64,000 nt of DNA from Candidatus Bathyarchaeia archaeon. GTDB taxonomy: Archaea > Thermoproteota > Bathyarchaeia > TCS64. Location: positions 31,094-95,093 of the forward strand of contig JBEKDF010000007.1 in NCBI GenBank assembly GCA_050014495.1, written 5' to 3'. Of this stretch, positions 1,377 to 64,000 are shown piece by piece. The notes under the pieces are model-generated. The model worked only from the letters and a program-made list of their open reading frames with translations, had not been told where the DNA came from and did not search any database. The position numbers and the translations under genes were made by a program. Within the stretch, counting starts at the first letter, position 1, and every line of letters starts with the position of its first letter.

Positions 1377-1392
1377 GGTGATAAGACTATGG
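1377..1392 (-). repeat. Dispersed repeat, short core fragment (GATAAGACTATGG)
   Basis: Same core as at 39241 and 41181; ends at GCGCGCGCACAC. Confidence 0.55.
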
Positions 1393-1436
1393 CGCGCGCA
1401 CACAAATTAATAATGGCAATTTTTGACTCGTTTGTG

Positions 1437-2735
1437 CTACTTCCTGTGGAGTTTCTCTGCTGCAATGAACGTAAGCCCATGCTGTGTGAGCATCTTCGCT
1501 GTTTGGTTTAGAGCTGCGTGTTTATCGAGGTAGTTTACGAGATACTTGGGCATCAGGCCCTTCTCCATGATATCCTTCTTTGGCGTAAAGTAGTTGAGTA
1601 TGTCTGAGGAATGTTCACGCTTTTTCTCGGTTTCAGGTAAACCGCCCTCATGTTTGGCGCTTATATTCTTTACATGGCCAGCCAAGGCAACAAGTTCGGT
1701 TTGCCGATTGTATGGTTGCCTGACTATGCTTCTATAGGCCTCCGTTACGTGGTGCTCGATGCGGACGATGTCTTCAAAGCCCCAGGGCTTACGTATCTGT
1801 GCGGTGAGTTCAATCGTCTCGTTATTCACGCTGTTTGATAGGTTGAAGCCGATGAGCGGGGTAGAACCATCGGATCTACTGAAGAGCTTCGCAGTCATCA
1901 GTGTCCACAATACGGAGTATGGGTTATCGATGCCTAGGAAGACGGAGATCTTGAACTCTATGTCTACTCCGAGCTTGTGCAGGAAATAACCCAGGAGCAC
2001 ACTGCCCATGTTTGTGTTCAGAGCCTGTTTAATGCCGTACATCGTGTAGTAGTGGAGGTATTCATCCACCCACTTCAAAGCAAGGTCGTTTGGCATCCCT
2101 ATGCCACCGAAGTAGCCAGTGATCGTCTCAGGTCCCCCAAGGTGCCTGTTTAACGGGGTGCCGTCGGGTCCGGGGATCATGCCCTTGGTATCTAGGGTCT
2201 CCACGAACGAGGCGCCGATGATCTGCATCGCTGCCTGTGTAGCGATGATGTCGTCGTCTTCCACCTGCTCCTTCATCGAGCGTACGCGTATGTATCGACT
2301 TGGCATGAGGTCCTGGTCGACTATGGATTTTTTCGCCTCCTCGATGAGCCATGGGAAGAAGTTTAATGCGCTGATTTCGAGCGTGACGGCGAAGGACTCG
2401 TCGAATTTCATCGACTCCGATTTTTCTCCTAAGATCCTCCGGCGGTAATCGGGGATGCTGACGAACGCGTTTTTATCGCGTTGTTTACTCAACCATTGTA
2501 GGTCCTTCAAAAAAGGCGAGTTCTTTTTTTCAAGCATGGAGAGGAGATTGTCTAGTTCCCCCGCCTTACGTGCTTTCTTGTTTATCTCTTCGACTCCGCC
2601 ATATTTGTCTACGATTTTTAACAGATCATTTATGAGGGAATTATCCTCTTGAAGTAAGAAATCGTTAATTTGTTTAAGGTTTTCTTCGTTTATCCGCAAT
2701 TTCTTTCGATCTTCCGCTCGATCTTTTGTCTTCAT
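1437..2735 (-). CDS. Conserved-looking hypothetical protein (432 aa)
   Basis: Long ORF with globular-protein composition; no motif I can assign. Confidence 0.8.
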   Translation of the reverse strand: MKTKDRAEDRKKLRINEENLKQINDFLLQEDNSLINDLLKIVDKYGGVEEINKKARKAGELDNLLSMLEKKNSPFLKDLQWLSKQRDKNAFVSIPDYRRRILGEKSESMKFDESFAVTLEISALNFFPWLIEEAKKSIVDQDLMPSRYIRVRSMKEQVEDDDIIATQAAMQIIGASFVETLDTKGMIPGPDGTPLNRHLGGPETITGYFGGIGMPNDLALKWVDEYLHYYTMYGIKQALNTNMGSVLLGYFLHKLGVDIEFKISVFLGIDNPYSVLWTLMTAKLFSRSDGSTPLIGFNLSNSVNNETIELTAQIRKPWGFEDIVRIEHHVTEAYRSIVRQPYNRQTELVALAGHVKNISAKHEGGLPETEKKREHSSDILNYFTPKKDIMEKGLMPKYLVNYLDKHAALNQTAKMLTQHGLTFIAAEKLHRK

Positions 2736-2819
2736 CTTTATCTAAAATACTCTACATCATAACCGCATAAGACTTTTTTTATTCGCGCGTGCTTTTGTTC
2801 AAGCCGTGCTACTAAACGG

Positions 2820-3428
2820 CTATGACGCCTCGATCACTTCCTCTAATCTAGCTATCGTGAGGTTGGTCAGAAAATTGATCCTCTCAACATCGAGATAGCT
2901 CTCTATATTTTCATCGTAGAATATCCTTGCATCTACGGGGAACTCAGCATCGGCTGATGACAGGACGAATGTCAAAGGGATGAGAGGTAAAGTGTTAATC
3001 TTAAAGGCGTAGTCGCCGTAGGGAAAGTCGACCCCTAAGCCACCTAGGAATTTGGCGGCTTCCCTAAGCCTCGTGTCACCGCCTGCATATAGAGTCAGAA
3101 GTTTCTCACGGGCTCCTATATTTGAGAAGTCTCCGAATCTCGCGCCTCTTAGGTTTCTATAGGCGATGAGTCTACCAGTCAACTCGACGCTCTGGGCCCC
3201 AGCATATCCAACAAGGATGTAATATGCGGTCCTAATCATGAAGCCTTGATGAGGGTCACTTGCATCGAGTTCCCTACTCTTGAGTAGATCAAGCAATTTT
3301 CCGTTGTTCAAGTTGACTCTGATATTTAAGAAATCAAGGTGTTCCCCTTCGGGGAATCCCAGTTTCCCTGCGAGAGTACGTATTTGGTCTCGAACATTGA
3401 TCCAGCTCCAGTTGCCAAGCTCTGACAT
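2820..3428 (-). CDS. DUF3786-family protein
   Basis: GRLIAYRNLRG...LPLIPLTFVL...DAEFP...IFYD pattern; start moved to ATG 3428. Confidence 0.75.
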   Translation of the reverse strand: MSELGNWSWINVRDQIRTLAGKLGFPEGEHLDFLNIRVNLNNGKLLDLLKSRELDASDPHQGFMIRTAYYILVGYAGAQSVELTGRLIAYRNLRGARFGDFSNIGAREKLLTLYAGGDTRLREAAKFLGGLGVDFPYGDYAFKINTLPLIPLTFVLSSADAEFPVDARIFYDENIESYLDVERINFLTNLTIARLEEVIEAS

Positions 3429-3580
3429 TGAGGACAACTCAATCAGATTCCAGATAAGCATTCTGAAGCATTTGGCGTATTGGGTGAAGCCCATTTTGTG
3501 GTATCGACTCTAGAGAGCGCGCATGTTTGCGTCAAATATCATGACTAAAGTCCTATTAAGAAGGAACGGAAAAATTGCCC

Positions 3581-3730
3581 ATGAAACCACACACAGATCC
3601 TAAGCCTGGCCTCTGCCTCTTCGCGTGGCGGTGCCTCAAGTACAGGCCTAACGCGGCGGCGTGCAATCGTGAAGGTGGGGGAGTCTTCTGCGGAGAATGG
3701 AGGAGATTCAACGGCGCACGCTCACATTAA
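3581..3730 (+). CDS. Unannotated 49-aa four-Cys microprotein
   Basis: MKPHTDPKPGLCLFAWRCLKYRPNAAACNREGGGVFCGEWRRFNGARSH*; TATTAAG about 27 nt upstream. Confidence 0.6.
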   Translation: MKPHTDPKPGLCLFAWRCLKYRPNAAACNREGGGVFCGEWRRFNGARSH

Positions 3731-3939
3731 ATGCCTCAGGTTCAATGGTCAGGTAGTATCTTGCATGCACGAACATAGTGTTAAGCAGGAAGTTTAGCAC
3801 GTCTAACTCCACGCGTTAGAGTTTCTTCAGCAGGGTGATGAGTGCATCAGTGATTAGGTAGCGTCCCATGTTTGTGCTTCACCCGCGAGCGAGATTAAAG
3901 AGGTATATACTTGAATGCATCAGGGAAAACTGAACAGAG

Positions 3940-4371
3940 ATGACGTTGGAATTTGTATTAGATTTCCAGAGGTGGGGTGGCGGTGAGCCGACTGCTGTCG
4001 GTGAAGGCTACAGCTGCACATACAAGGGAAGGTACTACTCAGTACTGTTCACCCGCGCCGGGATGTTTAGGGGCAACCACATACACCCTCATAGACAACA
4101 CACCCTGCTTATGGAGGGAAGAGGAAAATACGTCTTCAGGGAGAAGGATGGTACCGAGTCTGTGCACCGCCTCTCGGTTGGCAGTATACTCGATGTTGAG
4201 GCCGGGATCCCCCACATATTTCTCCCGGAGAGTGATTGCCTTACGGTAGAATGGTGGGAGGGCCCATTCGTGGCTGAAGAGTATGACTTCCCAAACTATA
4301 CGGCTAAGATCAAGAAGAAGATGGAGGAGTTCGACAGGATACACGCTGAACTCAAGAAATCAAAGAAATAG
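3940..4371 (+). CDS. Cupin-domain protein
   Basis: RGNHIHP...Q and GIPH cupin metal motifs. Confidence 0.8.
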   Translation: MTLEFVLDFQRWGGGEPTAVGEGYSCTYKGRYYSVLFTRAGMFRGNHIHPHRQHTLLMEGRGKYVFREKDGTESVHRLSVGSILDVEAGIPHIFLPESDCLTVEWWEGPFVAEEYDFPNYTAKIKKKMEEFDRIHAELKKSKK

Positions 4372-4507
4372 TCTGCGCGTGCAATATCTTCGTTTTTTTG
4401 GGGAATCACTGCTAGTCATGTGGCTTCTATACAAAGGAGGCAAAAGTTAAAACATGAGATTACCCGAGCATCTCTCTCATCAATTTATCCGAAGGTGAAT
4501 TAAATGA

Positions 4508-4696
4508 GTGAATCCAAAAAAAGTTGGACCAGAACTCATTGTGTTACAGCAAGAGGTTCAGAAATTAGTTCCATTCTGTCTATCCGACAATGTAATCGCA
4601 TTGAATCTGATGAGGGCCAGAGGAACGATTAAAGGAAAACGCACCGAGGATAGATCTTGGATCAGGTGGATCGAAGACAAGGAAGAAAGCAAATGA
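4508..4696 (+). pseudogene. Small winged-helix-like protein, internally deleted paralogue of 38258..38542
   Basis: Aligns to 38258..38542 (LQQEV..FCL.D.V.ALNLMR..GTIK.KR) but lacks about 14 aa. Confidence 0.55.
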
Positions 4697-4734
4697 AAAC
4701 TCACGCGAATTTATCCGTGTATAATGTAACTCGA

Positions 4735-5154
4735 TTACTCAACTTCGAAGACATGTGTACAGAGTTGGTCGCCTCTAGCACGAGATGTCTGAACACTCAT
4801 CTTGATGCCTGGCCTCACAGTTGACACAATTCCCTCCATCCAAGGCCATGCATAATTGGCGTCGAGCCAAGTCCACGGCAGGTTAAACGTTAAAGCACTA
4901 CGCATTATTACGCAGAAACCCCTATCTCTCTTAACAACTCTGCCATCCTCGACCATCGCAGATTGCTCACTCCTTACTGTACTCATTGCAGCGTTAAGGA
5001 TTTCAGCGACTGCCTCGAGGCCATCCCCTTTGATATTAAATTTTTGTTTTAATATTTGACCCGTCTCGCGTCCAATCTGGAAAGCTGCTCTCTTAGCTGC
5101 CTCTGGGTCACCTTGAAATCGCTCATAGAACTCCTTGGGAGTGGGCCAACTCAT
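4735..5154 (-). CDS. V4R/ATC-hydrolase-like small ligand-binding protein
   Basis: C-terminal ARGDQLC.HVFE and internal Cys pattern. Confidence 0.6.
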   Translation of the reverse strand: MSWPTPKEFYERFQGDPEAAKRAAFQIGRETGQILKQKFNIKGDGLEAVAEILNAAMSTVRSEQSAMVEDGRVVKRDRGFCVIMRSALTFNLPWTWLDANYAWPWMEGIVSTVRPGIKMSVQTSRARGDQLCTHVFEVE

Positions 5155-5355
5155 TTTTTACACAAATATTAGGTAGACCAGGAGGTTTATAATAGGTTTC
5201 ATGGACATCGCGCGCATGTACTCAGTTCATATTCAAATCGTTTGTGTTTGTTCGTCTGTTTTTGTCGCGCGCGCATATTTTCATTATATAATAGCCTGAG
5301 AATAAAAAACATAGATAATTTCAAATATACTTAAAGTGGTTTTCAAGGATTCGAA

Positions 5356-6579
5356 TTGGGTAGTGTTTCAGCGGATGTAAAGCGATACCGCTGGGTGGTT
5401 CTAGGGGTCACCTGGCTCACATACATGAGCGTCTACCTAATCAGAAACGCAGTGCCACCACTGTCGACCTTCATCGTATCTGATCTGAACCTCACTCGTT
5501 TCGACATAGGGTTACTCGCCTCAGCAGTAGCAGTGGGCTACCTAGTCGCACAGATACCTGCAGGTTGGCTCGTAGACGACTGGGGCGTCAGAAAAATGAT
5601 TCTACTGGGGACCGCCTTTGCGGGGGCGCTCGTCCTAGGTATGTACTTCGTGAACAACTACCCGACGGCGTACGTACTCCTCATAGTGGCGGGCTTCGGC
5701 TGCGGCGCATTCCCCACGGTGTCAACAAAGGCTCTGCTGACCTGGTTCCCCCCCAAGGAGCGAGGCACTACAATAGGAATTAACCAGACTGCCGTGAATG
5801 TTGGGGGGATAATCACAGCCGCGACCCTCCCCACAGTCGCGATACTATATGGGTGGCGCATCGGCTTCGTCGCAATTGGCGTTGTAACGATCCTAATCGC
5901 CATAATTGCGTACACCCTCTATCGTGATGCACCAAGCACCCTCGTGGACGTTGAACCCTCTAAGCCGAGGTCTAGGCCAAGTATAAAAGACTCAATCAAG
6001 CTTATGCTAGACCGTAATATCCTCCTCATCAGCATCTCGTGTATAGGACTCATGATGGTTCAGTTCGCCATGACGACCTATCTCATCATATACCTAACTG
6101 AGATCGTTGGCATCTCAGTGACCCTTGCAGGTGGCTTCCTCGCTATCGTGAATGCTGGCGGTGCCGTCGGTAAGCCCTTACTTGGTGCCATGAGTGATCG
6201 GCTCTTCGGTGGGAGCAGGAAGAAGCCTCTGCTGTTGGCGGCGGTGATGTCGTTCGGTTTATCAATTTTGATGCAGTTCATAGCAGCAAGTACACCCTAC
6301 ATCGTGCTCTCGGTGATCTTCGCATTGTTCGGGTTCTCCGCCCTCGGGTGGGGTGGGCTGAACTTTGTCCTGGTCTCCGAATATGCGGGGAGGGAGAATG
6401 CGGGTCTGGCGGTTGGCTACTCTAACATGATTGGGCTCATCGGGAACATTATTGGTCCTCCCATCTTTGGTTTAATTATCGACGCTACTGGTTCTTACTC
6501 GTGGGGATGGTGGTTCCTGACGGCTTCCGCATTGTTTTCGGTGGTTGGGTTTGCCTTTGTCCGTGAGGGGGGCAGGTAG
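5356..6579 (+). CDS. MFS transporter
   Basis: About 12 TM segments; GWLVDDWGVRK and GAMSDRLFGG motif-A loops; WFPPKERG. Confidence 0.93.
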   Translation: MGSVSADVKRYRWVVLGVTWLTYMSVYLIRNAVPPLSTFIVSDLNLTRFDIGLLASAVAVGYLVAQIPAGWLVDDWGVRKMILLGTAFAGALVLGMYFVNNYPTAYVLLIVAGFGCGAFPTVSTKALLTWFPPKERGTTIGINQTAVNVGGIITAATLPTVAILYGWRIGFVAIGVVTILIAIIAYTLYRDAPSTLVDVEPSKPRSRPSIKDSIKLMLDRNILLISISCIGLMMVQFAMTTYLIIYLTEIVGISVTLAGGFLAIVNAGGAVGKPLLGAMSDRLFGGSRKKPLLLAAVMSFGLSILMQFIAASTPYIVLSVIFALFGFSALGWGGLNFVLVSEYAGRENAGLAVGYSNMIGLIGNIIGPPIFGLIIDATGSYSWGWWFLTASALFSVVGFAFVREGGR

Positions 6580-6664
6580 GTTAAGGAGTCAGCTCTACAT
6601 TTTGAGAGATGTGTATAACGTTAACTCACCGAGGTAAAGAATGCGGGCGACTCGTGATCGGATC

Positions 6665-7438
6665 TCAGGGAACTGATTGGAGGTAGATCGAGCTTCCATA
6701 GATTGTCCCTATTGGACCTTCCTCGATCTCCAGATGAGGAGGCGTGGAGTCGAATGGAGGCGGGTTGGTGCCGGGAGCATAGGCGGAGGACGATATAACC
6801 AACTTGATGACGAGGGTTCCACCCGTTCTCAGGATCCCCGACGTTACATTTTGAGTGACTGTGAATCCCTTGGGCACCGCAGTTACCCTGACAGATATAG
6901 GCAGAGACGCATCGTACGATGGCCGAGCTGCGAACAACAGGATCACTTCACTAGCTTGACCCTGCTTGACCACGACAGGGAAATACGGATCATTAGCATA
7001 TGCAGGGACCGTGGTGATGGAGAAATCTGGCCCAGGAGCGGGTCCCTCCGAGCCTTCCTGGGCTAGCATCAGTTCACCAGTTGTGGCGTCCACAATGTAG
7101 CTGCCAAAGGTGTAGTTGGATAGGTAATCTATGAACCAGTATGGTTTTATGTCTCCAACTTGGGAGGTGGAGACGTAGATTCGACTGTGTGACCCCGATG
7201 TTATTAGGTAGTTAACCCAGTTTATCGGCATGTACCGAAGCTCAACACTTTGAAGCCATTTGTCCTTGATGATGGTTTTCTCAGGGTCCACCTTGGCGCT
7301 CGTTTTAACGACGTTTATCGCCTGCTCTCGCGTCAATATGAGATCGGCGGGTACATTCTGTAATAAGATCATAAATCCAGTGAAGGCTAGAAGACAGGAG
7401 ATTAACGCTGTTAAAGCGGTCCTTGAGCCAGGTGACAT
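6665..7438 (-). CDS. Membrane-anchored/secreted hypothetical protein (PepSY-like and Ig-like segments)
   Basis: N-terminal hydrophobic anchor, IVDATTGEL motif, beta-rich C-terminus. Confidence 0.65.
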   Translation of the reverse strand: MSPGSRTALTALISCLLAFTGFMILLQNVPADLILTREQAINVVKTSAKVDPEKTIIKDKWLQSVELRYMPINWVNYLITSGSHSRIYVSTSQVGDIKPYWFIDYLSNYTFGSYIVDATTGELMLAQEGSEGPAPGPDFSITTVPAYANDPYFPVVVKQGQASEVILLFAARPSYDASLPISVRVTAVPKGFTVTQNVTSGILRTGGTLVIKLVISSSAYAPGTNPPPFDSTPPHLEIEEGPIGTIYGSSIYLQSVP

Positions 7439-7585
7439 TATTACATCCTCTTCGATTCTAAAGACTTAATACTAATCATTAGAGCAGGAATATTTTTTCT
7501 AGATTTCATCTTTTCCAGATCCCTTCCATGGAAACATTACCCGAAGACAATCCTTTTTATCCCTCCACAGTCGACCTATTTCGAG

Positions 7586-7927
7586 TTGATCAGCTCAAAG
7601 ATCAGGATCAAGGTCCAGTCCGTCAAGTCGGTGAAGGACATGGAGGGGAGGGAGTGCTTCCAGATCGACTTCGTGGAGGTCAGGCAGCGCCCACCGATGA
7701 TGATGATGACTAACCCCGATGTCCCCGAGGAGATAGGGCAGATGGTTATGCAGGTCACTAAGAGCTTCCAGAGCGTAATGCCCGGCATGGGGAAGGACTA
7801 TGAGCAGATGAAGCTCACACTTGTCCTGACTGGGGAGGAGCTCGAGAGCTTCCGTCTCAAGCCCTACCCGAATATTCTCTATGAGTTAACGATAACCGAT
7901 GGTTCTCTTAGCTTCGCTGAGGAGTAA
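7586..7927 (+). CDS. Arcadin-1 homologue
   Basis: 113 aa; FQIDFVE..RPP, LTLVLTGEELESF, YELTITDGSLSF resemble Pyrobaculum arcadin-1 as I recall it. Confidence 0.7.
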   Translation: MISSKIRIKVQSVKSVKDMEGRECFQIDFVEVRQRPPMMMMTNPDVPEEIGQMVMQVTKSFQSVMPGMGKDYEQMKLTLVLTGEELESFRLKPYPNILYELTITDGSLSFAEE

Positions 7928-7979
7928 CTGGGGAACGGGTTAAATTTAGCCCCGCTCGATTCTCATCAAGTGATTCAGC

Positions 7980-8321
7980 TTGTCCTTGGATGACCTACAG
8001 TATGTTGACTGGGACAGTCGGGTTATGAAGTCTGAGAAGCCGGTCATAGTTGAGTTCTGGCACCAGTCATGCCCCACCTGCAAGAAGATTGAACCCGTTG
8101 TGCAGGGGCTTCCACAGAAGCTGGGTGACAGGGCGAAGCTGCTCCGATTCAACGTCATGGAGAACAGGGAGGCGCGTCGCTTCGCCATAGACAAGGGGGT
8201 CATTGGGACACCCACTTTCAAGATCTACTGCAAGGGAATCGAAAAGGAGGAGGTCGTTGGTCTGGAGACCACCGCGAACCTCCTCGAGACCATCGAGAAC
8301 ATCATCAAGGACTGCCAATGA
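7980..8321 (+). CDS. trxA: Thioredoxin-family protein
   Basis: VIVEFW...CPTC and GTPTF cis-Pro motif. Confidence 0.88.
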   Translation: MSLDDLQYVDWDSRVMKSEKPVIVEFWHQSCPTCKKIEPVVQGLPQKLGDRAKLLRFNVMENREARRFAIDKGVIGTPTFKIYCKGIEKEEVVGLETTANLLETIENIIKDCQ

Positions 8322-8334
8322 GGCTATACCTCAC

Positions 8335-9252
8335 TTGTACGATGTAATAATTTTGGGCTCGGGGCCAAGCGGCTTAACAGCCGCCATATACGCAGCTCGA
8401 GCTAAACTAAAAACGCTCGTTTTAATCGGTCCAATGGTTGGAGGCCAAATAGCTCTGACCCACCAGGTCGACAACTACCCTGGATTCCCCGATGGACTCA
8501 CAGGACCTGAGCTGACGGATAGATTCAAGGCCCACGCGGAGAAGTTTGGGGCAGAGTTCCTCGACGCCGAGGCAACTGGAGTCGATTTCGGTTCCTCGCC
8601 ATACAAGGTGTGGGTCGGCGAGAAGCTCCTCGAAGCGAGTTCGATCATTTTAGCGACTGGGATGACTCATAAGAGACTTGGGGTCCCTGGGGAAGACCGT
8701 CTATTCGGCAGGGGGGTCTTCGTCTGCGCGACCTGCGACGCGTTGCTATACGAGGATAAGAAGGCTGTTGTAGTCGGTGGAGGCGACTCCGCTGTTCAGG
8801 AGGCGATAGATCTGGCGAAGTTCGCGTCTGAGGTGACAATCGTCCACAGGAGAGATGAGCTTCGGGCTTGCAGATGCCTCGTCGACAAGGCGGTGAGTGA
8901 GCCAAAGATAAAGTTCCTCTACAGCACAGTTGTTGAGGAGATCATTGGGGAGAAACGTGTACAACAGGTGAAGCTCAGGGACCTCAAGACGGGGGCGATT
9001 AGCGTCATAGCCTCGGATGGCGTCCTCCTAGCCATTGGATGGGACCCTAATACCGGGATATATAGAGGACAGTTGGATATGGATGAGTCTGGGTACCTCG
9101 AGACATTCGGGGTCAAAACCAAGAAGCCGGGCGTATTCGTCGCTGGGGATCTCATGGATAAGGACTACCGTCAGGTGGTGACGAGTTGCGGCAGTGGCTG
9201 CGCTGCAGCCCTCGAAGCTTCTCACTGGCTCGAGGTTCAGCATAATCTTTGA
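8335..9252 (+). CDS. trxB: Thioredoxin reductase
   Basis: GSGPSG, CATCD, GGGDSA, HRRDELRA, GVFVAGD; likely start TTG 8335. Confidence 0.93.
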   Translation: MYDVIILGSGPSGLTAAIYAARAKLKTLVLIGPMVGGQIALTHQVDNYPGFPDGLTGPELTDRFKAHAEKFGAEFLDAEATGVDFGSSPYKVWVGEKLLEASSIILATGMTHKRLGVPGEDRLFGRGVFVCATCDALLYEDKKAVVVGGGDSAVQEAIDLAKFASEVTIVHRRDELRACRCLVDKAVSEPKIKFLYSTVVEEIIGEKRVQQVKLRDLKTGAISVIASDGVLLAIGWDPNTGIYRGQLDMDESGYLETFGVKTKKPGVFVAGDLMDKDYRQVVTSCGSGCAAALEASHWLEVQHNL

Positions 9253-9290
9253 GGTGTTTAGTTCATGGTGCCCATCCTGAGCCAACGGAG

Positions 9291-10205: not shown

Positions 10206-10250
10206 CCCTTTTATTTGTTCCTTCCTTCGGAAACTCGAAGGTTAGTTCTC

Positions 10251-21203: not shown

Positions 21204-21290
21204 CCAGTTGGTGCTATTGGATATCAATTTGCGTCCCGCGCGTTGAGGGATAGGTGTGTACTCATGTGCGCGCGCTTCTGGATTGTGGTC

Positions 21291-33455: not shown

Positions 33456-33578
33456 GGTTAGCTCCCTCAGCTTGGTGCCGATATAAGATTTTACAGAAAT
33501 TCAGGGTTACATTTTTGAGGTAATTTAAACGCAAGTTACGTAGTGCACGCGTGTGCACAGATGCGTATACTTCGATCT

Positions 33579-33791
33579 TTACTTTTTAGCCGATACCCTT
33601 TCCACTTTTACAATTGCTCTGCTGACACCAGCAAGAGGAGGCAACAGATGTGATAGTGTTTGTTCGGCTGTGCATCGTCTAACTATTCCCTTAGAACTAG
33701 TTTCAAACCAACCATCTTTGTCTCTTTGAAAGGATTGTAGTACCCTTCCGTCTTTGTTAAGAAATTTGATTATGCATTCATTGTTCCTCAT
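33579..33791 (-). CDS. Small hypothetical protein
   Basis: ATG with GGTGA ribosome-binding site; 70 aa. Confidence 0.6.
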   Translation of the reverse strand: MRNNECIIKFLNKDGRVLQSFQRDKDGWFETSSKGIVRRCTAEQTLSHLLPPLAGVSRAIVKVERVSAKK

Positions 33792-33842
33792 TGACTCACC
33801 AGCTCGTGCGAGTGGATTTCTTCTAGTTGTGCGTGTACCATA

Positions 33843-33860
33843 GCGCGCGCGCGCGCGCGC
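33843..33860. repeat. Perfect (GC)9 tract
   Basis: Read directly; abuts the aldolase fragment. Confidence 0.98.
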
Positions 33861-34194
33861 ATTAGTTATTCCAATGATAGAAACCGTTGAGGGGTTAGAT
33901 AATATAGATGGAATCCTCTCCGTTCCTGGAATCGACGTTCTTTTAGTGGGTCCTTCAGACCTTTCAATTAACTTGGGTATAACTCTGGATTATCTAAACC
34001 CAAAGTATGGAGAGGCATTGGATAAAATCGCTGCTGCCTGCAAGAAGGCGGGTGTGATCCCTGGCATGTACTTCATCCCGGGGGAACAAGATCCAAACAT
34101 GTTCGTTGAAAGAGGATTTACATTATTCACTCTACCATGGAATAAATGGGCCGCTAAAGGTATACAGAGTGGTCTAGAAACGATTAAAAGATAA
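33861..34194 (+). pseudogene. C-terminal part of an HpcH/HpaI aldolase
   Basis: LVIPMIETVEGLDNIDGILSVPGIDVLLVGPSDLS begins immediately after (GC)9; N-terminal half absent. Confidence 0.85.
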
Positions 34195-39787: not shown

Positions 39788-39896
39788 TGATAGCGCGCGC
39801 GCCGAAAGAATAGGTCGGAAGATCTGGACCTCTTACTGAGAAGAATAGGAAACTAAGGAAACAGCGCAGACGAGAGAAAAGAGCCGGAAGAACCAA

Positions 39897-40141: not shown

Positions 40142-40264
40142 ATGAAAGTGAAAGAGGATAAGAAGGGTTACAGGCTACCCACTGAGTCCGAGAAGCGTGA
40201 CGATAAACTTCGTGATGCGTTGAAGACAGTTCGAGGGACGAAGAAACATTATCCATCACGATGA
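40142..40264 (+). CDS. Unannotated 40-aa charged/basic microprotein
   Basis: MKVKEDKKGYRLPTESEKRDDKLRDALKTVRGTKKHYPSR*; TGATG overlap, GGAG upstream. Confidence 0.55.
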   Translation: MKVKEDKKGYRLPTESEKRDDKLRDALKTVRGTKKHYPSR

Positions 40265-46404: not shown

Positions 46405-46948
46405 GCGCGCGCTCTGTGGTGATTCCGCCGGGTATGTAGGCTGAGTAGTTGTCGAATGGGCTGAAACGGGGAATAATAGCTTTCACGGCGGGGTGTTTGT
46501 TTACGGCGAGGAACTCGGCTGTGGCGCCAACATAGGAGGTGCCTAAGGAGCCAACCAAGCCATTGGACTATGGCTGTTTGATGATCCAATCGACGATCTC
46601 ACCCTCGTCCTTGACTTCGTCGCTTGACCAGGGATAGGGCCACACACCGCAAGAGGCGCCTGTGCCTCGTACGTCGACGAAGACGAGTGCGTAGCCTCCG
46701 CAGGTGAAGACTTCGATGGCTTCGGATTGCTTCTGGAACCACTTGAATGGGGGTCGAACGTCGTTGGCTCGCCAGTATCGTGTCTGCAATATCAGTGATG
46801 GGATCTTTGCGTCTGATGCTAGGCCTTTGGGTAGCTGTATGTCTACTGCGAGCTTTACTCCGTCGTGCATTGTTAGGTAGACTGACTTTGTTGTGAATCC
46901 TCTGTATTTTGGCTTCCAGGTTGCTTCAGCTTTACCGAAGTTGGACAT
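46405..46948 (-). pseudogene. CocE/NonD-family hydrolase with a nonsense codon and 3' truncation
   Basis: MHDGVKLA, TRY, DVRGTGAS, QP*SNG.VG..GTSY.G; homology ends at (GC)4 46405-46412. Confidence 0.85.
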
Positions 46949-55527: not shown

Positions 55528-55581
55528 GCGCGCGTGTTATCGCGAGTGATCGATTATCAGAAATTATTAAATCAAAATACT

Positions 55582-55881
55582 CTAATCCGTCGATAAGCTT
55601 AGGAACTGTTGCTTTGACTTCAAAGTTCTTCTGATTACGCCCCGAGCCTCAAGGTCCAGCTTGACTGCCTCGGTGTACCATGAAACCGAGCCATCGAACC
55701 CAGCTGCGAGGCGATTCGAGACGCATCTAAGCAACTCTGTATGGGTCAGCTCTCCCCTAGACTTCAGACAGTGTACGATGGCGCCCTTCACATCGTCGTA
55801 CTTTTCCTCACTTATCTTGAAATTCTTCTTTCCCTCTGGGTGAAGCATTTGTATCATCTTGACGGCTTTAGATTTATTCAT
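55582..55881 (-). CDS. Small winged-helix-like protein (DUF6958-like)
   Basis: LHPEGK..I..EKY, FDGSVSWY..AVKLDLEARG.I.R. Confidence 0.75.
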   Translation of the reverse strand: MNKSKAVKMIQMLHPEGKKNFKISEEKYDDVKGAIVHCLKSRGELTHTELLRCVSNRLAAGFDGSVSWYTEAVKLDLEARGVIRRTLKSKQQFLSLSTD

Positions 55882-55965
55882 CGAATTTGAGTATCTCTGA
55901 CACAAAATAATTACATTTGGGTCGTTGTGGAAGTCTCACGCCTGCGCGCGATAGTTAGTTGGCAG

Positions 55966-56730: not shown

Positions 56731-57710
56731 TTTCTCTCATCCTCCCTCAGGGAACGACCCGTGTACTTCAAGAAAACGTCATCCAGACTTGGTCTGGACA
56801 TCGTGACGCTCTGCACCTGCAGGTCTCTTGTTTCAAGTGAACGCATAAGCTCAGGCATCGCCCTCTCCCCATCCCTCGCATACAGATAGACGGAGTTGTC
56901 CTTGGCCTGAATATTCTCGAGCTGAATATTCTCCGCTAACAGATTTTTTGCCTTATCCGCGATCTCCCCAGATGAAAAGCTAAACACGATTGTGTCTCCG
57001 CCGATGTTACTCTTCAACTCCTCCGGCGTCCCGGTCACAATTATTTTTCCGTTATCAATAATTGCTATCCTGTCGCAGAGCTTGTCAGCCTCGTCCATGT
57101 ACTGAGTGGTCAAAAATATAGTTACTCCATCAGCCTTCAGTTTTCTGATCTCCTCCCAGAGGTATGCCCTGCTCTGAGGGTCGAGGCCAGACGTTGGCTC
57201 ATCGAGGAGGAGCAGCCTTGGGTGATGAACCATCCCAAGTGCAACGTCTAAGCGGCGCTTCTGGCCACCAGAATACGTTGAGGCAGGTCTCTCGATGAAT
57301 GAACTCATCTGAAACCGCTCCACCAACTCGGACGAGTGTTTTCTCGCTGTTGAAGCCTCTAAGCCATACAATTGAGCCTGGAGGTGAAGATTCTCGATGC
57401 CCGTTGAGCCTAAATCGGCTCCACCGGCTTGACTCACGCATCCAACGTTCTGCCTAATCTGTTCCTGCTGCTTCACCAGGTCGTAGCCAAGAACCTTTGC
57501 CTCTCCACCTGTCGGCTGCAGGAGTGTTGAGAGCATTTTCTGCGTGGTTGACTTACCGGCACCATTGGGGCCGAGGAAACCATAGATCTCACCTCGTTTC
57601 ACAGCAAGATCTATGCCCTTAACCGCCTCCACCTCTTTTTTCTCGCCGCCATACTTGGAGATGAATGTCTTTTTGAGCCCCTTTGTTTCAATTATGAAAT
57701 CTTCAGCCAT
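56727..57710 (-). CDS. ABC exporter ATP-binding subunit (DrrA-like)
   Basis: GPNGAGKS, YSGG, LLLDEP, TTQYMDEAD. Confidence 0.95.
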   Translation of the reverse strand: MAEDFIIETKGLKKTFISKYGGEKKEVEAVKGIDLAVKRGEIYGFLGPNGAGKSTTQKMLSTLLQPTGGEAKVLGYDLVKQQEQIRQNVGCVSQAGGADLGSTGIENLHLQAQLYGLEASTARKHSSELVERFQMSSFIERPASTYSGGQKRRLDVALGMVHHPRLLLLDEPTSGLDPQSRAYLWEEIRKLKADGVTIFLTTQYMDEADKLCDRIAIIDNGKIIVTGTPEELKSNIGGDTIVFSFSSGEIADKAKNLLAENIQLENIQAKDNSVYLYARDGERAMPELMRSLETRDLQVQSVTMSRPSLDDVFLKYTGRSLREDERK

Positions 57711-58000
57711 GTTAGGTCTCCTTAGATAGGCCGATGAATTACTAACACTGGAAAATTGTTGTAATGCGCCTTCTTATTCATATCGCGTTTGTTTACGCAG
57801 CCTGCGTGTCATCCGCGTGGGTTATTTAAATAGAATCTTTACTATACTTCAAAATAGGGGAATTTAAGACGCTTGGATCCGAGATCGATGAAGCGAATAG
57901 AAAGGCTGTTGATAGTATAATTTCTGCCGAAGCCATGCTTGTGGACGTAAAGCCAGCGCGAAACGAACCATTGTTGCGCGCGCTCCTGAGAGACTTTGGC

Positions 58001-58462
58001 TTATTCGGAGGGATCTAGGTACATCCGGCCTGGTCCAGTCGTGAAATTGAAGATCGGTTTATCCACCCTCAGATATGTAAGAGGACAGTGTTCCACCCCC
58101 CTTGGTATGAATATCATGCAGCTCCGGGTGATAATGTGCCTCTCCCCACCCAACCAGAACTCCACCTCCCCGCAGAGGTCGTAGGGGTCAGCTGTATCGG
58201 TGCCACACATACATAGAACCTCGTCGTAGTCGTGGCTGTGGGCTTTAGCGACGGTCTTAGGGGGATCTCCATCCTTCGAGGGGAAGCTCCAAGCGGCCTC
58301 CACGTAAAATGAGCCCGGGACGACTTCGCTGTCCAGATAGAGGAGTCGACCTCCTCTCCCTTTACCTGCCCTTTGCACGGGGACGGGCGGCGACCAAGGG
58401 GTTTTAGCTATCTTCTCCTTCAGCTCGGTGACTATGTATTTCCCATACTCGGAATTTACCAA
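58001..58462 (-). CDS. Cupin-like protein
   Basis: HSHDYDE, IFIP.GV.HCP. Confidence 0.75.
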   Translation of the reverse strand: MVNSEYGKYIVTELKEKIAKTPWSPPVPVQRAGKGRGGRLLYLDSEVVPGSFYVEAAWSFPSKDGDPPKTVAKAHSHDYDEVLCMCGTDTADPYDLCGEVEFWLGGERHIITRSCMIFIPRGVEHCPLTYLRVDKPIFNFTTGPGRMYLDPSE

Positions 58463-58623
58463 TTAGAAACACTTCACCAAATTCCTCATCTGTGAGTCTT
58501 AAAATCATTTACGATACGCGTGCGGAGAGGGAGCGCGCGCATGATATGAACAACCTGTTTAACCTCTCTTAAATACGCAAGTGAAATACTATTTTGTGAC
58601 TAACAGATATATTATTGTATAAA

Positions 58624-59545
58624 ATGCCAACAAGACGGCTGATTAGCATAGTACTTCTATCATCAATCATCATATTCGTCTCACTGATGACAAACATGGC
58701 TTCACCGTCGACCCACGCATTACTAGTTCTAGAGTGGCGGAAAACATACGGGGTAGGCTCAGGGAGATCCGTTCAGGTAACACCAGATGGAGGCTACATA
58801 ATCACCGGCTACACGGGCTCAGACGCGCCAGGAAGTGACTCAGACGTCTACCTCGTGAAGACAGACGCCTCAGGAAACATGCAGTGGAATAAGACATACG
58901 GTGGAGCCGAGAGGGATGAAGGTTACTCGATGCAGGTCACAGGAGACGGGGGCTACATAATCAGTGGCAGCACCCTATCATTCAGTGTGAACGGGTTACA
59001 TGACGTCTACCTCGTGAAGACGGACTCCACAGGAAACATGCAGTGGCAGAAGACGTATGGTGGAAGAGGCGACGATTTTGGTTACTCGATGCAGGTAACC
59101 CCAGATGGGGGCTACATCATCGCTGGCGAAACCTTTCAATACGGGACAGGCATGGAGGACATACTCCTCGTGAAGACCGACGCATCAGGCAACGAGATGT
59201 GGAACCGAACAATCGGGGGAACCGTGGATTACTCTGGCTGGTCGGTTGATGTCACCTCTGATGGTGGCTACGTGGTCGCTGGTAACACGGGGTTGAACGA
59301 GCCAAGTCAAACTGATGTTCTCCTCGTGAAGACGAACTCTACGGGTGATGTGCAGTGGCTAAGGACCTTTGGTGGAAGAGGCAACGAGGCTGGTTTCTCG
59401 GTTCGGCAGACCTCGGATGGGGGCTACATAATTGCTGGTGTGACGGATTCATTCGGTATAGGTAGCTACAATGGTAGCTACAATGTCTACCTGGTGAAGA
59501 CGGACTCCTCAGGCAAAATGCAGTGGCAGAGGACGTATGGGGGCA
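58624..59545 (+). pseudogene. Secreted beta-propeller repeat protein, 3'-truncated at (CG)8
   Basis: Signal peptide plus five ~50-aa repeats (DGGYII.G...DVYLVKTD..GNMQW.KTYGG); repeats stop at the tract. Confidence 0.8.
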
Positions 59546-59561
59546 CGCGCGCGCGCGCGCG
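59546..59561. repeat. Perfect (CG)8 tract
   Basis: Read directly; joins two truncated convergent genes. Confidence 0.98.
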
Positions 59562-59765
59562 AACACTTGGGAAAATCGCGTTCCAGGCAGATGTGCAGAA
59601 GCCTTCAGGCATCCTACCGTTCTCCTCCACGATGAATTCCTGATTATCCTCATAGACTTCGCAAGCGCCAAGTTCTCCTGCTGGGGTCACGGGACTCTTT
59701 GAGAAGACCTCCGAGGGTCTGAACCTTCTGAGAATGGTTATCCTCACTCTGCTTCTCTTAGACAT
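59562..59765 (-). pseudogene. TIGR04076-like protein, 3'-truncated
   Basis: VRITILR...GACEVY...QEF....MPEGFCTSAWNAIFPSV then (CG)8; C-terminal Cys/D/PV.F segment missing. Confidence 0.75.
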
Positions 59766-59875
59766 ACCAATTCATCCTCTGGAGTATTGGCTATAAAAAT
59801 AGCGTGCGCGTGCGCAGAAGCTAGGCCATACATACACCAGTATGCGCGCGCTGAAATGTACGCGGGTGAATCACA

Positions 59876-60670
59876 TCATTTACTCGTGCCTTCGCTGGTG
59901 AGGAAGTTCAGCACTTCTCGGTTGAAGGCGTCCCTCATTTCTACCATGAAGGTGTGCGAGCCGCCCTCGACCTTGACTAGCCTGGACCTCGGGATCCTAC
60001 TCGAGATAACCTCGGAACTGACCGGCTTGATGAGCCTATCACCGGTTCCCACTATGACCAGTGTGCTGGCGGTGATCAAACGTAGTCTCTCGAGGGTGTT
60101 GTGGTTCGAGCAGGCCTCCCTCTGTCCCTCGATCCCCACAGTATCCGAGGTAGCTGTGAGCATGGACCAAACCTTGCTCAAGAGGCCGAAGGTGAATCTA
60201 TATAGTGGCTTGTTGAAGGCCAGACTAAGCATGGCGTTGGCCATCTTCCCTGGGGGTAGTAGGGCCAGCTTGGCCATCTCCGGGGTGCTTCCGCTCGTCT
60301 CGTCTTGGCAGGCGTATGTGCAAGCGAGCACCAGCTTGTTGACCCTCTCCGGGTGGTTTATCACGAGCTCCTGCGCGATCATTCCGCCCATCGAGGCTCC
60401 CATTACGTTGGCCTTCTCGATTCCCAGGTTGTCCATCAGGTGTACAGTGTCCTCTGCCATCATCCTGGTGGAGTAGGGACCCTGTGGCTTATCAGATTCG
60501 CCGACCCCACGGTTGTCGAAGATAACGACGCGGTAGTGTCTCCTGAAGAATGGCGCCTGGTAGTACCAGCCTATCATGGGTGAGCTGAATCCCATTATCA
60601 TTACGAGGGGCTCGCCCTTTCCCTCCACCCTGTAGTTTATGTTGATGTCTCCGAGTTTGGCCAGCGGCAT
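59876..60670 (-). CDS. Alpha/beta hydrolase (PcaD-like)
   Basis: FDNRGVG.S, GASMGG, GTGD, GGSH. Confidence 0.92.
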   Translation of the reverse strand: MPLAKLGDININYRVEGKGEPLVMIMGFSSPMIGWYYQAPFFRRHYRVVIFDNRGVGESDKPQGPYSTRMMAEDTVHLMDNLGIEKANVMGASMGGMIAQELVINHPERVNKLVLACTYACQDETSGSTPEMAKLALLPPGKMANAMLSLAFNKPLYRFTFGLLSKVWSMLTATSDTVGIEGQREACSNHNTLERLRLITASTLVIVGTGDRLIKPVSSEVISSRIPRSRLVKVEGGSHTFMVEMRDAFNREVLNFLTSEGTSK

Positions 60671-60781
60671 GGTGATCTTATTTTTCCCTGCATTGGAGTG
60701 ACTTTTCTTGGTTTCTATTTACGCGCATGCAATATGGTTCGGAGGTATCGCGAGCCATGTACACATGCGTATACATTTGTA

Positions 60782-60943
60782 TTTGACTTGGGTAAAGTTG
60801 GTTTGGGGTCATAGTCTTATCCTCACTTCCACCTGATCCTCGAAAATTTAACCCAAATTGAATTTGGCATAAGCCTCATCCTAGTGTGCAATAATCTTAT
60901 CCAAACTACTACCTGATACAAATCAAGTGATCAAGTTGGATGC
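60782..60943 (+). repeat. Most complete copy of the dispersed modular repeat
   Basis: Core, palindromic module, second core-like unit and tail in series. Confidence 0.9.
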
Positions 60944-62406
60944 TAAAAAGCAAGAGAATCCTAAAACCTTCTTATACAGAGAAACCCTTCGTCCACAATA
61001 TCATTTTTCTCCTCCATTACATTGGATCAACGATCCCAACGGACTTGTTTACTACGATGGTGAATACCATTTATTCTATCAACACAACCCCATGGGCATC
61101 CGATGGGGACACATGAGTTGGGGACATGCAATAAGCACGGACCTAATTCACTGGCAGCATTTACCGCTGGCGATCCCGGAAGAAAATGGCGTGATGATTT
61201 TCTCGGGCGGCTGCGTGATAGATAAAAATAACACGGCGGGCTTTGCAGACAAACCCGGCGATGTCCTGATGGTTGCGATCTATACAGGACACACTGAAGG
61301 CAAGAATCAATCACAACATCTCGCTTACAGCAATGATAAAGGAAGATCATGGAAAAAATATGAGAAGAATCCTGTCCTTGATCTGGGCCTAAGAGATTTT
61401 CGTGATCCGCAGGTGTTCTGGTATGAGCCGGATAAGAAGTGGGTAATGTCAGTAGTGCTTGCTGTTGAAAAAAAAGTTCAATTTTATAGTTCATACAATT
61501 TGAAAGAATGGAAATATATGAGCAGCTTTGGCCCTGCGGGAGATGTTTCTGGTAACTGGGAGTGCCCTGATCTGTTTGAGGTTCCTATTAATGGCGAGCC
61601 GAGGAAAACTAAATGGGTATTGATGCATTCGCCTTCTCCATATATGCAGTATTTTATTGGTGATTTTGATGGAACGTTTTTTAAAAAATAAAAGCCCTTC
61701 CGGTAAAATTTTCAGACCAGATTATGGTCCCGATTATTATGCCGCAGTTGTTTTTAAAAATCATTCAGCGGAGGTATCTCCGGTTAGTATCGGCTGGGTA
61801 AATAACTGGAACTATGCTCGGGACATTCCAACCATGCCATGGAGAGGTGCTATGTCTTTACCACGGCTGCTCAGCTTGAATAAAGTAAATAATGAATGGC
61901 TTTTGTTACAGGAACCCGTTACTTCTGTTGAGCTACTTCGATCTGCACCTATATTAGAATTGAAAAATTTAATTGTTGAAAAAACAATAACGCTTCCTGT
62001 AAAATCACAGCAGTTTGAATTGATTTATTCTGTTGAGCCTTCCGCTGATTCAAATTTCGGAATACGATTTTTTTCGGGGGCTGGTCATGAAATGGAGTTG
62101 GACTATGATAACACATCTCAAACTCTTTACATGGATAGAAGTAAAACAAGCAATAGTTCGTTTAATAGGTCATTTGAAAAACTAGGACGTTATGAAACAC
62201 ATCTTACTCTAGATAATGCTCTTTTGAGTTTGAGGATATTTGTTGACAATAGCATTGTGGAAGTTTTTGCTAATGAGGGACGATCGGTGATGACTATGCA
62301 GGTTTTCCCTAATGAAGTTGATTCAGGGGTTGAACTATTCTGCAATCAAGGGAAAATCTTCATAGAGAATCTTACTCTTTGGCCGATAAAGTCTGTTTGG
62401 GAATAG
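60927..62406 (+). pseudogene. GH32 levanase/beta-fructosidase split by a +1 frameshift in T6A6 (about 61677-61688)
   Basis: WINDPNG, FSG, FRDP, WECP in ORF1; DYGPDYYA, GWVNNW.YA, SLPR, DNSIVEVFAN in ORF2. Confidence 0.9.
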
Positions 62407-62539
62407 ATCAATCACAAAACGTTGTATTCAAAAATCTTAGTCCAAATGCGCGCGCGCATTACGCATCTATGAAAATACTCAATTTTAGCAGCTTTTATTT
62501 ATCACGTATTCTATAAGTATCTAGGATCAAGTAGAAAAC

Positions 62540-62827
62540 ATGAACAACGTCAACGAGAACAGGAAGAAGGTTGTTCAGATCTTAAACTCTAATCGATACG
62601 AGATCGAAGATGTCGAAGGAGCAATTCTAGCGAGTAAATATTGTGAAAGAAGCGGTGGAGGATTAATGTGCCTTCTACTCGAAGCGAGTCCACCATTTGA
62701 GGAGATAAAGACCTGGGGGGAATATGCCGCTCATTTGGACGACAGTGACGTCAATAATGTAGTTAGTGCTCTAAACCAGAACCTTTTTGAGTTACTTGGT
62801 GGGGCACGAGTATTACAGTCGAAGTAA
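62540..62827 (+). CDS. Hypothetical protein
   Basis: Clean ATG ORF after CTATAAGT. Confidence 0.6.
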   Translation: MNNVNENRKKVVQILNSNRYEIEDVEGAILASKYCERSGGGLMCLLLEASPPFEEIKTWGEYAAHLDDSDVNNVVSALNQNLFELLGGARVLQSK

Positions 62828-62968
62828 GAGTGGTAACTCGTCGCACGTGCACGCGCGCGCATTTGCTACACTTCATTACTTGTTGTATAGACGATGTAAC
62901 CGCACTTTGAGTGTGTATTAACTGGTACTTCACATAAACGTCTTGGTGGCGCACGTGTGCGCGTGTTG

Positions 62969-63814
62969 TTAACTCTTCAACTCTTTCATTGCTTTCTCTC
63001 GGGATATATTGATCGTCGGTACCTTCATCTTCTCGAATTTTTTCAGGAACCTGCATATCCAGTCAACGTACTCATCCATCAAATGAAGAGAATATTCCAT
63101 GGTTATCTGAGAGTAGTCCTTTGTTCCAGGTTCAATGTCGGGGTCTGCTTCAGTCATAGAACCCGTGTCTGTGACGTCCGCGGTTTTAAGTGGGAGCCTT
63201 ACGACGCCGCCGTCAAACTCGGCTAGCCCTGCACTAAGAATCTTAATATCGTCGTCGAATTGCTTCGTCGGGGAAAGTATCGCGTACTCCATCTTAACAG
63301 CTTCAGGCCTTGAGGCCAGCATGAAGGCCGTCTCCGAGTATCCTGCGTGAGCCTCGAAGTTTTGGTTGAAGATCTTTCTCGAGCCCCACGATGTGAACCA
63401 TTCAACTATCGCCCCGAACATGCCGAAGTCGTCCCTGGCCCTCTTCAGTGCCGATGTGATTGAGGGGGTGTTGCCTCCGTGGCCGTTTATGAAGAGGACC
63501 TTGCCTATTTTATGGCGGTTTAAGTTTGCCAGAATCTCGTAGATCACCTGTTCGTAGGTTGATTCGTCGAGTGTGATGACGCCAGGGAACTCCTTGTGGT
63601 GGCCTGAGACTCCGTAGGTTAACACGGGGAGAACCAGTGCATCCGATTTCTCGCCGACGCGTCTGGCGATCTCCCATGCCTGTATCCAGTCGGCGCCTAC
63701 GCCTAGGTGTAGGCCATGCTGCTCGGTTGCACCCACTGGCACAATTGCTACCTTTGTTTTCTTTATTTTTTCTTCGGCTTCCCACCACGTCATGTTTGAA
63801 AGTTCGTAGACCAT
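62969..63814 (-). CDS. Creatininase-family amidohydrolase
   Basis: PVGATEQHG.HL...D, YGVS.HH..FPG, NGHGGN, HAG..ET. Confidence 0.92.
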   Translation of the reverse strand: MVYELSNMTWWEAEEKIKKTKVAIVPVGATEQHGLHLGVGADWIQAWEIARRVGEKSDALVLPVLTYGVSGHHKEFPGVITLDESTYEQVIYEILANLNRHKIGKVLFINGHGGNTPSITSALKRARDDFGMFGAIVEWFTSWGSRKIFNQNFEAHAGYSETAFMLASRPEAVKMEYAILSPTKQFDDDIKILSAGLAEFDGGVVRLPLKTADVTDTGSMTEADPDIEPGTKDYSQITMEYSLHLMDEYVDWICRFLKKFEKMKVPTINISREKAMKELKS

Positions 63815-64000
63815 TTTTATTCTAGATAATATTATGGTGTGGAGATAAAAGAATCATTTGATATCTCTTTTAGGAAAAATGCGCGCTTGCTTGTTTAGAA
63901 ATTCGTATTTTAGGACCACCTGAACGCCCCAACATAACCAAAACGAGGAAAAGCCAAAGCTCACAACACACGAGCCATCAGCCGAGAAACAGGCAGATAC

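Follow-up and report, generated by a model that had tools for sequence, protein, structure and literature searches.

Short (GC)n runs at DNA joints of a Bathyarchaeia genome and a candidate primase with a pseudoknotted RNA that may write them

Telomerase can heal DNA breaks. Telomerase and the DRT10 systems each have a structured non-coding RNA beside the polymerase gene and a single-stranded loop whose repeat permits repeat addition by re-annealing, and the loop sequence differs between DRT10 homologs. A 2-nt A-A' pair is described for DRT10 homologs (10.1101/2025.10.16.682844). The products of these systems are a protein-primed long repeat or a chromosome cap. In this study, we analysed 64,000 nucleotides of a Candidatus Bathyarchaeia archaeon (contig JBEKDF010000007.1, positions 31,094 to 95,093; hereafter the window), in which short alternating (GC)n runs occupy most gene spacers. 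We propose that these runs are probably written by a stand-alone primase-like polymerase that is templated by the GCGC loop of its own pseudoknotted RNA, and that insertion sequences (IS) land in the finished runs. The putative system resembles telomerase and DRT10 in its structured RNA beside the polymerase gene (non-adjacent in the genome of the window itself), in a single-stranded loop whose GC-GC repeat would permit repeat addition and in the variation of the loop between homologs. Unlike in those systems, the candidate enzyme is an archaeo-eukaryotic primase (AEP; PF01896, PriS fold) and not a reverse transcriptase, and its predicted product, primed by a DNA end, is a self-complementary run that is short and lies at internal joints. 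In our assessment, the system would work like a telomerase-type RNA-templated polymerase, yet outside that family.

Other described systems share single features with the runs. Non-homologous end joining (NHEJ) by Ku and LigD also places an AEP-family polymerase at broken ends and gives deletions with 0-2 nt shared, and its operon is present in the genome of the window. In contrast, the filler described here is a constant alternating run of 5-12 nt whose edge tracks the RNA loop, and the candidate primase belongs to a separate PriS-like family; structures 5dmu and 2iru were among its fold-search matches. IEE and AgaPP are likewise mobile AEP enzymes that join DNA ends, and IEE is tied to IS excision and deletions; both differ in using existing microhomology together with a helicase domain or partner, and their abstracts mention no RNA template and no constant junction sequence (PMC9943667, PMC11724360). 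No description of such a system was found in the literature that we searched, which left most subscription papers outside.

The window forms the final 64 kb of contig C7 in a genome of 3.1 Mb in 92 contigs (G000; 96% complete by marker count), which we assign to the Bathyarchaeia by gene content. Other genomes are numbered from G001 onward, C denotes contigs of G000 and L denotes fetched loci or stretches. Genes were called with our own dicodon model. We compared G000 against its own sequence and against about 2.6 Mb from relatives, mostly G002, G016 and G015, whose stretches were picked near IS copies, tracts or window homologs and are thus a non-random sample. The family panel comprised 19 genomes of the family and 12 outside it. 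Sequencing runs that contained the window were mostly peat and wetland metagenomes.

Alternating tracts of the window and the joints they mark

The original prediction had described more than 60 short purine-pyrimidine tracts that occupy most spacers in every gene orientation. The ten tracts it had quoted were all found at their given positions, and counting those of at least 7 nt with GCGC or CGCG gave the following feature:

1392..63886, no strand: (GC)n-centred tracts, read as junction scars, 69 intergenic and 90 in all

Among the 53 spacers of at least 60 bp, 41 carried a tract (22 of 27 tandem, 10 of 12 convergent and 9 of 14 divergent), as did 1 of the 13 spacers below 60 bp. For comparison with dinucleotide shuffles, we counted tracts of at least 8 nt with a GCGCG or CGCGC core. 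Intergenic DNA of the window contained 53 such tracts versus 5.4 in the shuffles (maximum 13 in 200 shuffles), and its coding DNA contained 6 versus 10.7. Over the whole genome (5 shuffles), the counts were 939 versus 121 in intergenic DNA and 337 versus 547, below expectation, in coding DNA. Three operons had been named as free of tracts between their genes; a few short tracts lie inside genes there, and one of them (10197) overlaps a stop codon. The tracts are thus real, and their description could be refined, as the core is a pure (GC)n run.

Free pure runs of 8, 9, 10 and 11 bp numbered 176, 138, 106 and 5 in G000, with a sharp limit at 10 bp. The same counts were 68, 49, 31 and 4 in the fetched stretches of G016 and 58, 15, 11 and 0 in those of G015, and in all three sets the pure core showed a plateau at 7-10 bp and a steep fall at 11. 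Interruptions within the G000 runs were mostly AC (36), GT (36) and AT (20), with 2-7 for each of the others; transitions, re-priming on the AU of the RNA loop described below and the GUGCAU copy of the RNA could each contribute. The pattern was restricted to the family, with 0-134 matches per genome in the 19 family genomes and 0-5 in the 12 outside. Gene modules of the window were dispersed over many contigs in relatives. In a self-comparison of G000, 123 of 245 ends of near-identical repeats lay at tracts, against a background of 4%; this coincidence was not counted as independent support because many of these ends are IS ends at contig breaks.

It had been asked whether reads span the junctions. 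Contigs of the sequencing runs X8, X9 and X11, which were not flagged as possible sources of the assembly and may belong to related campaigns, cross eight window tracts with zero differences, which excludes an assembly or amplification chimera:

45196, 46405, 52125, 58533, 59840, 62446, 62842, 62949: tracts crossed by independent contigs

We then compared the flanks of the runs with their relatives. From 835 pure runs of at least 8 bp we obtained 131 distinct flanks with a parent, that is, a sequence at least 82% identical that reaches the run and then diverges. The parent had no run at 111 of these 131 junction sides. The first letters of the run were shared with the parent over 0, 1 and 2 nt at 40, 51 and 19 sides, versus 98, 26 and 6 expected. 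When the selection was tightened to 65 sides, the base that followed in the parent was G for 32 of 45 runs starting with G and C for 13 of 20 runs starting with C. At 20 of the 131 sides a run of at least 5 bp already lay near the junction in the parent, and therefore runs get reused. Additionally, we compiled 21 candidate internal gene deletions of 36-1021 bp net (16 with a parent at the DNA level), in which a run replaces the lost part and is absent from both parent ends. Of the 6 deletions of less than 200 bp, 5 lacked GCGC within the stretch that was lost, as judged from the homologs shown. Four events of 306-309 bp had prompted the idea that deletion sizes recur at 145-bp intervals, which was rejected as not significant (p=0.24 over 21 events). 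The homologs were 70-95% identical, and single letters are accordingly uncertain; runs of 5-12 letters are explained by neither end.

Five window tracts were among the traced runs (21263, 33843, 39793, 46405 and 62446), and they are given here together with a further gene cut at a tract:

21263..21275, no strand: scar; the 88%-identical parent of one flank (L158, G016) runs on without a run, 1 nt shared
33543..33862, no strand: 283-bp piece, 95% identical to G002, between the tracts 33543-33559 and 33843-33862
39793..39802, no strand: scar at the end of a small open reading frame (ORF) region with an Alba domain; the C51 paralog (88%) has no run
46405..46412, no strand: scar; the G016 parent (87%) has no run, and an independent assembly crosses it unchanged
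58615..59643, plus strand: repeat protein gene, cut at the 19-nt tract 59543-59561 (16-bp pure run)
62446..62459, no strand: palindromic scar AT(GC)5AT; the G016 parent (94%) has no run

The tract at 33843-33862 contains an 18-bp pure run, the longest of the genome, and the G002 copy shares just GC on the 33843 side. For the repeat protein gene, the alignment with the C8 paralog stops at residue 305, directly before the tract. The form AT(GC)5AT is what would be expected of two tails primed on a GCGCAU loop. Judged by these parent comparisons, the runs are sequence newly added where broken DNA was joined, and the earlier view of the tracts as seams of deletion and capture was sustained. One window gene is broken otherwise: the glycoside hydrolase family 32 gene at 60927-62406 is split into two overlapping frames, and no run lies at the break.

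The pseudoknotted RNA and the candidate polymerase

That no responsible enzyme is in the window was upheld and could be extended to RNA; profile searches with 25 window ORFs revealed no candidate, Rfam gave no match and the best hit of our RNA model had an E value of 0.13. The likely writer of the runs, a primase on C53, is encoded elsewhere in G000, and a second extra AEP is listed with it:

G000:C53:7058-7861: stand-alone PriS-like primase, 268 aa (PF01896, PriS fold)
G000:C20:26050-27366: second extra AEP, 439 aa, intact among 30 relatives in G005, G007, G013 and G017 only

The alignment of 42 of the 91 homologs found for the C53 primase revealed the invariant motifs D99, D101, S148-G149-x-x-G152-x-H154 and D205. 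Its structure model (pLDDT 88.7) matched archaeal PriS best, with a Foldseek E value of 2e-11 to the P. furiosus primase at 15% identity. Another PriS, of 419 aa, is a separate gene on C1, and the 268-aa primase, unlike replicative PriSL, is no universal single-copy core gene. It was intact only in G000 among the 31 genomes searched, it neighbours an integrase-like ORF, and remnants of it lie on five further G000 contigs, several of them cut at runs. Records that carry relatives of this primase bear titles including Bathyarchaeia, Brockarchaeota and Nitrososphaeria, and the 110 loci of these relatives had the same plateau of runs at 8-10 bp (62, 40 and 34, then 6).

We found a conserved RNA element of about 95-130 nt that overlaps the end of the primase gene in 76 of the 96 loci with room for it (scored within -120 to +200 nt of the gene end). 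The drawn structure, with an outer stem, a hairpin and a pseudoknot, was 94.7% paired over 22 sequences. These showed 52 two-sided changes versus 15 in shuffled alignments, and all 7 pseudoknot pairs covaried; the structure had been derived from the same 22 sequences. Single-sequence folding was unexceptional (z from -2.1 to +1.1), and no Rfam match was found for the RNA. Its CUGA and GAUGA motifs may form a kink-turn. The loop between the hairpin and the pseudoknot reads GCGC followed by A-rich letters. G000 has 8 copies outside the window, seven with the loop GCGCAU and one with GUGCAU.

Copying of the loop GCGCAU would give ATGCGC, and copying of GCGCUA would give TAGCGC. In G000, runs starting with ATG outnumbered those starting with TAG (ATGCGCGCG to TAGCGCGCG, 186:51), and the same ratio was 27:13, 28:6 and 50:19 in the fetched stretches of G002, G015 and G016. 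In five genomes with a GCGCU loop it was 34:118, 25:231, 44:173, 40:219 and, in the fifth, 9:10, so that the preference for AT over TA was reversed in 4 of 5. Three loci with a UGCAU loop had 11 ATGCATGC and zero (GC)4 in 5.7 kb. The letters preceding the runs thus appear to follow the RNA loop, as a correlation, with AT for GCGCAU and TA for GCGCU. The RNA or a primase remnant was present in 9 of 11 tract-rich versus 1 of 8 tract-poor family genomes (136 RNA candidates scored per genome), a comparison among non-independent kin in which the remnant of G007 is weak.

The Ku-LigD operon, with LigD-Pol, Ku and a ligase-phosphoesterase (the ligase and phosphoesterase identified by reading the protein sequence), is intact in G000 at C3:64205-67463. 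LigD-Pol was found in 16 of 19 family genomes, including all 11 tract-rich ones; outside the family there were two weak matches among 12 genomes. The presence of the operon does not account for the scars, because G001, with 1 tract, and G010, with none, also carry it intact. Other candidates were tried and rejected. PolX also occurs in tract-free families, and the 439-aa AEP on C20 (counted as present if of high identity or a fragment) was found in 6 of 19 family genomes only, including G000, and is missing from several tract-rich ones. No reverse transcriptase match (PF00078) was found in G000. A 10-nt (GC)5 template RNA was also rejected, as no conserved non-coding run of that length was found in the sequence examined, and a multicopy non-coding element on C17 and C24 offers a run of 5 bp only. 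This last element, about 200 nt long (C17:14651-14870, C24:19691-19895; also L016, L072 and L145), has a TATA-like start and complementary ends and is 84-91% conserved in G002 and G015.

An ORF of 42-44 codons occurs in four places (window 40142-40260, C16, C21 and C22); the C16 and C21 copies lie within a few hundred bases of primase-RNA copies, and the C22 copy lies beside a primase remnant. A gene whose start looks by eye like a helix-hairpin-helix often follows the RNA (L195, L201, L203, L205 and L207), and a similar gene overlaps the C62 copy of the RNA (G000:C62:3399-4353). It is possible that this gene is a third component.

Insertion sequences and other repeats near the runs

Many contigs were found to terminate in one of a few related inverted repeats right after a run, and the contig of the window does so as well:

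63879..63886, no strand: run serving as an IS insertion site
63887..64000, plus strand: terminal inverted repeat and first 114 bp of an IS1182/IS5-like element, inside which the contig breaks

The identical element end is present on C6, C64 and C77. The element is 1.2-1.6 kb long and encodes a DUF772 and DDE transposase, and shorter non-autonomous copies are present; the best transposase families score under their NCBIfam cut-offs (IS1182 94.7 bits versus 270, IS5 84 versus 140). Inverted repeats were seen in 27 complete elements, and all 27, as well as nearly all of the 65 run-adjacent ends in G000, lie flush against at least GCGC. Such ends occurred in 15 of 19 family genomes versus 0 of 12 others. 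Only 41 of 942 intergenic tracts touch an IS, and G015 has 76 exact (GC)4 runs and no transposase match. The traceable IS flanks are mostly cut genes with no native GCGC at the joint, and two complete elements occupy places where 420 bp and 4.5 kb were lost.

The flank lengths were compared with a model in which the IS enters existing free runs and duplicates GCGCGC (6 bp). Flanks of 6, 7, 8, 9 and 10 bp were observed 22, 11, 16, 6 and 5 times versus 25, 11, 14, 5 and 4 predicted (p=0.89), and the mean sum of both flanks in the 27 complete elements was 14.4, both observed and predicted. A duplication of 6 bp gave a log-likelihood of -120, compared with -200, -160 and -255 for 2, 4 and 8 bp; five G000 ends below 6 bp were excluded from the chi-square and included in the likelihoods. 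These lengths agree with entry into pre-existing runs and a 6-bp duplication, and the element is therefore most likely a rider that uses finished scars.

A second element inserts at the CT where a (GC)n run meets the IS1182-like inverted repeat. Judged from its protein sequence, which we read by eye, it is IS110-type:

G000:C17:57466-58775, C48:5782-7090; L033, L097, L114, L117: copies of the IS110-type element

Thirteen of its left ends follow a run (6 more rows of a loose pattern were false matches), all 6 traceable right ends abut the IS1182-like inverted repeat, and the non-coding region retains GCGCGCG in five copies. IS4321 and IS5075 are IS110-family elements that target the ends of Tn21. 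The element described here similarly abuts the inverted repeat of another element; unlike IS4321 and IS5075, it has a (GC)n scar as its left target and keeps GCGCGCG in its non-coding region. The IS1182 family, with IS1272, shares the DUF772 and DDE transposase and self-complementary targets with the first element; IS1272 replaces a stem-loop without duplication (PMC5678879), whereas the element here fits a 6-bp GCGCGC duplication.

A second repeat with the core GGAAGTGAGGATAAGG had 166 matches genome-wide. It stands at the start of tandem units, each about 600 bp long and all in the same orientation, and tyrosine recombinases adjoin some of its arrays (C15, C29 and C40):

23422, 36850, 38173, 38577, 54812, 60815: second repeat in the window
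G000 C15, C24, C29, C50, C72, C74, C75, C77, C84: arrays of the second repeat

Most units encode paralogs of a membrane-anchored protein of about 180 aa, which we take to be DUF4760-like, and some hold unrelated genes; the repeat may be an integron-like cassette site or a promoter that was copied together with the paralogs. With a related direct repeat (AGATGAGGCTTAT), the second repeat also delimits a mini-element of about 84 bp (window about 60811-60894; also C32, C75 and C29), which often lies beside a run and has a weak resemblance to the primase RNA in its 3' part (E 0.13). Additionally, a small zinc-ribbon ORF (CxxC...CxxC, 40-66 aa) with a conserved upstream region is multicopy (C14:61500-61623, C24, C49, C1 and C10).

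Origin and meaning of the runs

In the proposed mechanism, a broken 3' end in T, G or C would pair over 1-2 nt with the RNA loop. The paired end would be extended, slip back two bases and be extended again, with GC-GC acting as a 2-nt repeat much as A-A' does in DRT10. Being self-complementary, two such (GC)n tails would then anneal, which would make any two ends joinable, and the annealed ends would be sealed by Ku and ligase from the resident NHEJ operon. Full overlap of tails of up to 10 nt would give runs of up to 10 bp, and partial overlap would give the rare runs of 11-18 bp; contraction of long runs is a possible alternative. Finished runs would subsequently receive the IS1182/IS5-like element, which would duplicate 6 bp (GCGCGC), and the IS110-type element lands on the junction of run and IS end. 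Of the three candidates offered in the original prediction, end joining with (GC)n filler is the one that fits.

The other explanations were weighed against the same observations. The LigD polymerase of the Ku-LigD operon, PolX or another primase might produce the runs by slipping on a GC end, with no RNA as template. The intact operon of G000 and the presence of LigD-Pol in every one of the 11 tract-rich genomes speak for such a writer; nevertheless, we consider it unlikely, as the operon is equally intact where tracts are nearly or wholly missing (G001 and G010), the switch from AT to TA with the RNA loop is left unexplained, and the PolX variant is weakened by the occurrence of PolX in tract-free families. 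Moreover, LigD-Pol is known for adding one or a few nucleotides. The runs could also be footprints of the IS1182/IS5-like element, that is, GCGC target duplications left by excision and adjacent deletion. Such an origin would agree with the abutment of the 27 complete elements and nearly all 65 ends on at least GCGC, with the restriction of the ends to the family and with the correlation between tract density and IS end count across genomes (Spearman 0.56), which either model predicts. It is quite unlikely all the same: the traceable native flanks mostly have no GCGC at the joint, the small deletions mostly have no GCGC target, and the likelihoods favour insertion into existing runs. In addition, imprecise excision that keeps both flanks predicts runs of 11-18 bp, which make up about 3% of the free runs of at least 8 bp, few tracts touch an IS, and G015 carries its runs with zero transposase matches.

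A different possibility is that another enzyme writes the runs and that the RNA loop recognises finished scars as a guide or decoy. Agreement between loop and scar gives no direction, and the RNA of G000 is multicopy and detached from the primase gene, both of which would suit a guide. We regard this as very unlikely, given that in 76 of 96 loci the RNA extends over the end of a gene for a catalytically complete polymerase and that the 1-2 nt shared with the parent are what priming on the loop predicts. Least probable, and hardly credible as an origin, is that the runs are older sites that were cut or recombined, by breakage at Z-DNA or by a GCGC-specific recombinase, as the original prediction had also considered. 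A parental run of at least 5 bp does lie nearby at 20 of 131 sides, and the genome has 13 tyrosine-recombinase matches; cutting or recombination at older runs is possible as a secondary use. Both variants are refuted as the origin because the parents offer no run to cut or to recombine at 111 of 131 sides or at both ends of the internal deletions. Furthermore, run length and outer phase vary, unlike a recombinase crossover, and in this the joints also differ from Xer- and integron-type sites.

Several observations weigh against writing by the primase and its RNA. The G000 primase has no adjacent RNA; the nearest copies lie about 2.35 kb off, behind other small ORFs. For its closest relatives (L193, L194 and L199), the displayed stretch of downstream sequence contained no RNA either. 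G015 (41 tracts) and G003 (11) revealed neither RNA nor primase remnant among the 136 RNA candidates scored per genome, G012 holds both and yet has 6 tracts only, and G032 has a GCGCU RNA and almost no scars. The split into 11 tract-rich and 8 tract-poor genomes was chosen after the counts were known. The match between loop and scar does not represent many independent events, because it involves two or three loop types in related lineages, and the loop could serve as a recognition site instead of a template. The 10-bp limit does not follow from the RNA, with its predicted template of 4-5 nt. An empty allele was not directly seen at any IS site, the 6-bp duplication having been deduced from lengths, and the G000 assembly carries 7.5% contamination by marker count.

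On balance, we favour the broader interpretation that a mobile archaeal ribonucleoprotein, composed of a PriS-type primase and a pseudoknotted RNA, may be a telomerase-like repair enzyme of independent origin. By reverse-transcribing a self-complementary loop of 4-6 nt onto any broken end, it would make unrelated ends cohesive, thereby driving the capture and deletion of genes throughout Bathyarchaeia, Brockarchaeota and Nitrososphaeria; its scars would form a niche for the IS1182-like element and then for the RNA-guided IS110-type element. If true, this would be an RNA-templated polymerase from the primase superfamily, with telomerase-like chemistry evolved in an unrelated fold. It would provide a third end-joining route besides blunt ligation and existing microhomology, in which the enzyme writes the cohesive sequence itself, and a few changed letters of the RNA should alter the scar according to the loop-to-scar rule. 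The scars would be a countable record of repair events, about 900 in G000, and the system would account for the mosaic accessory genome of an abundant group of sediment archaea.

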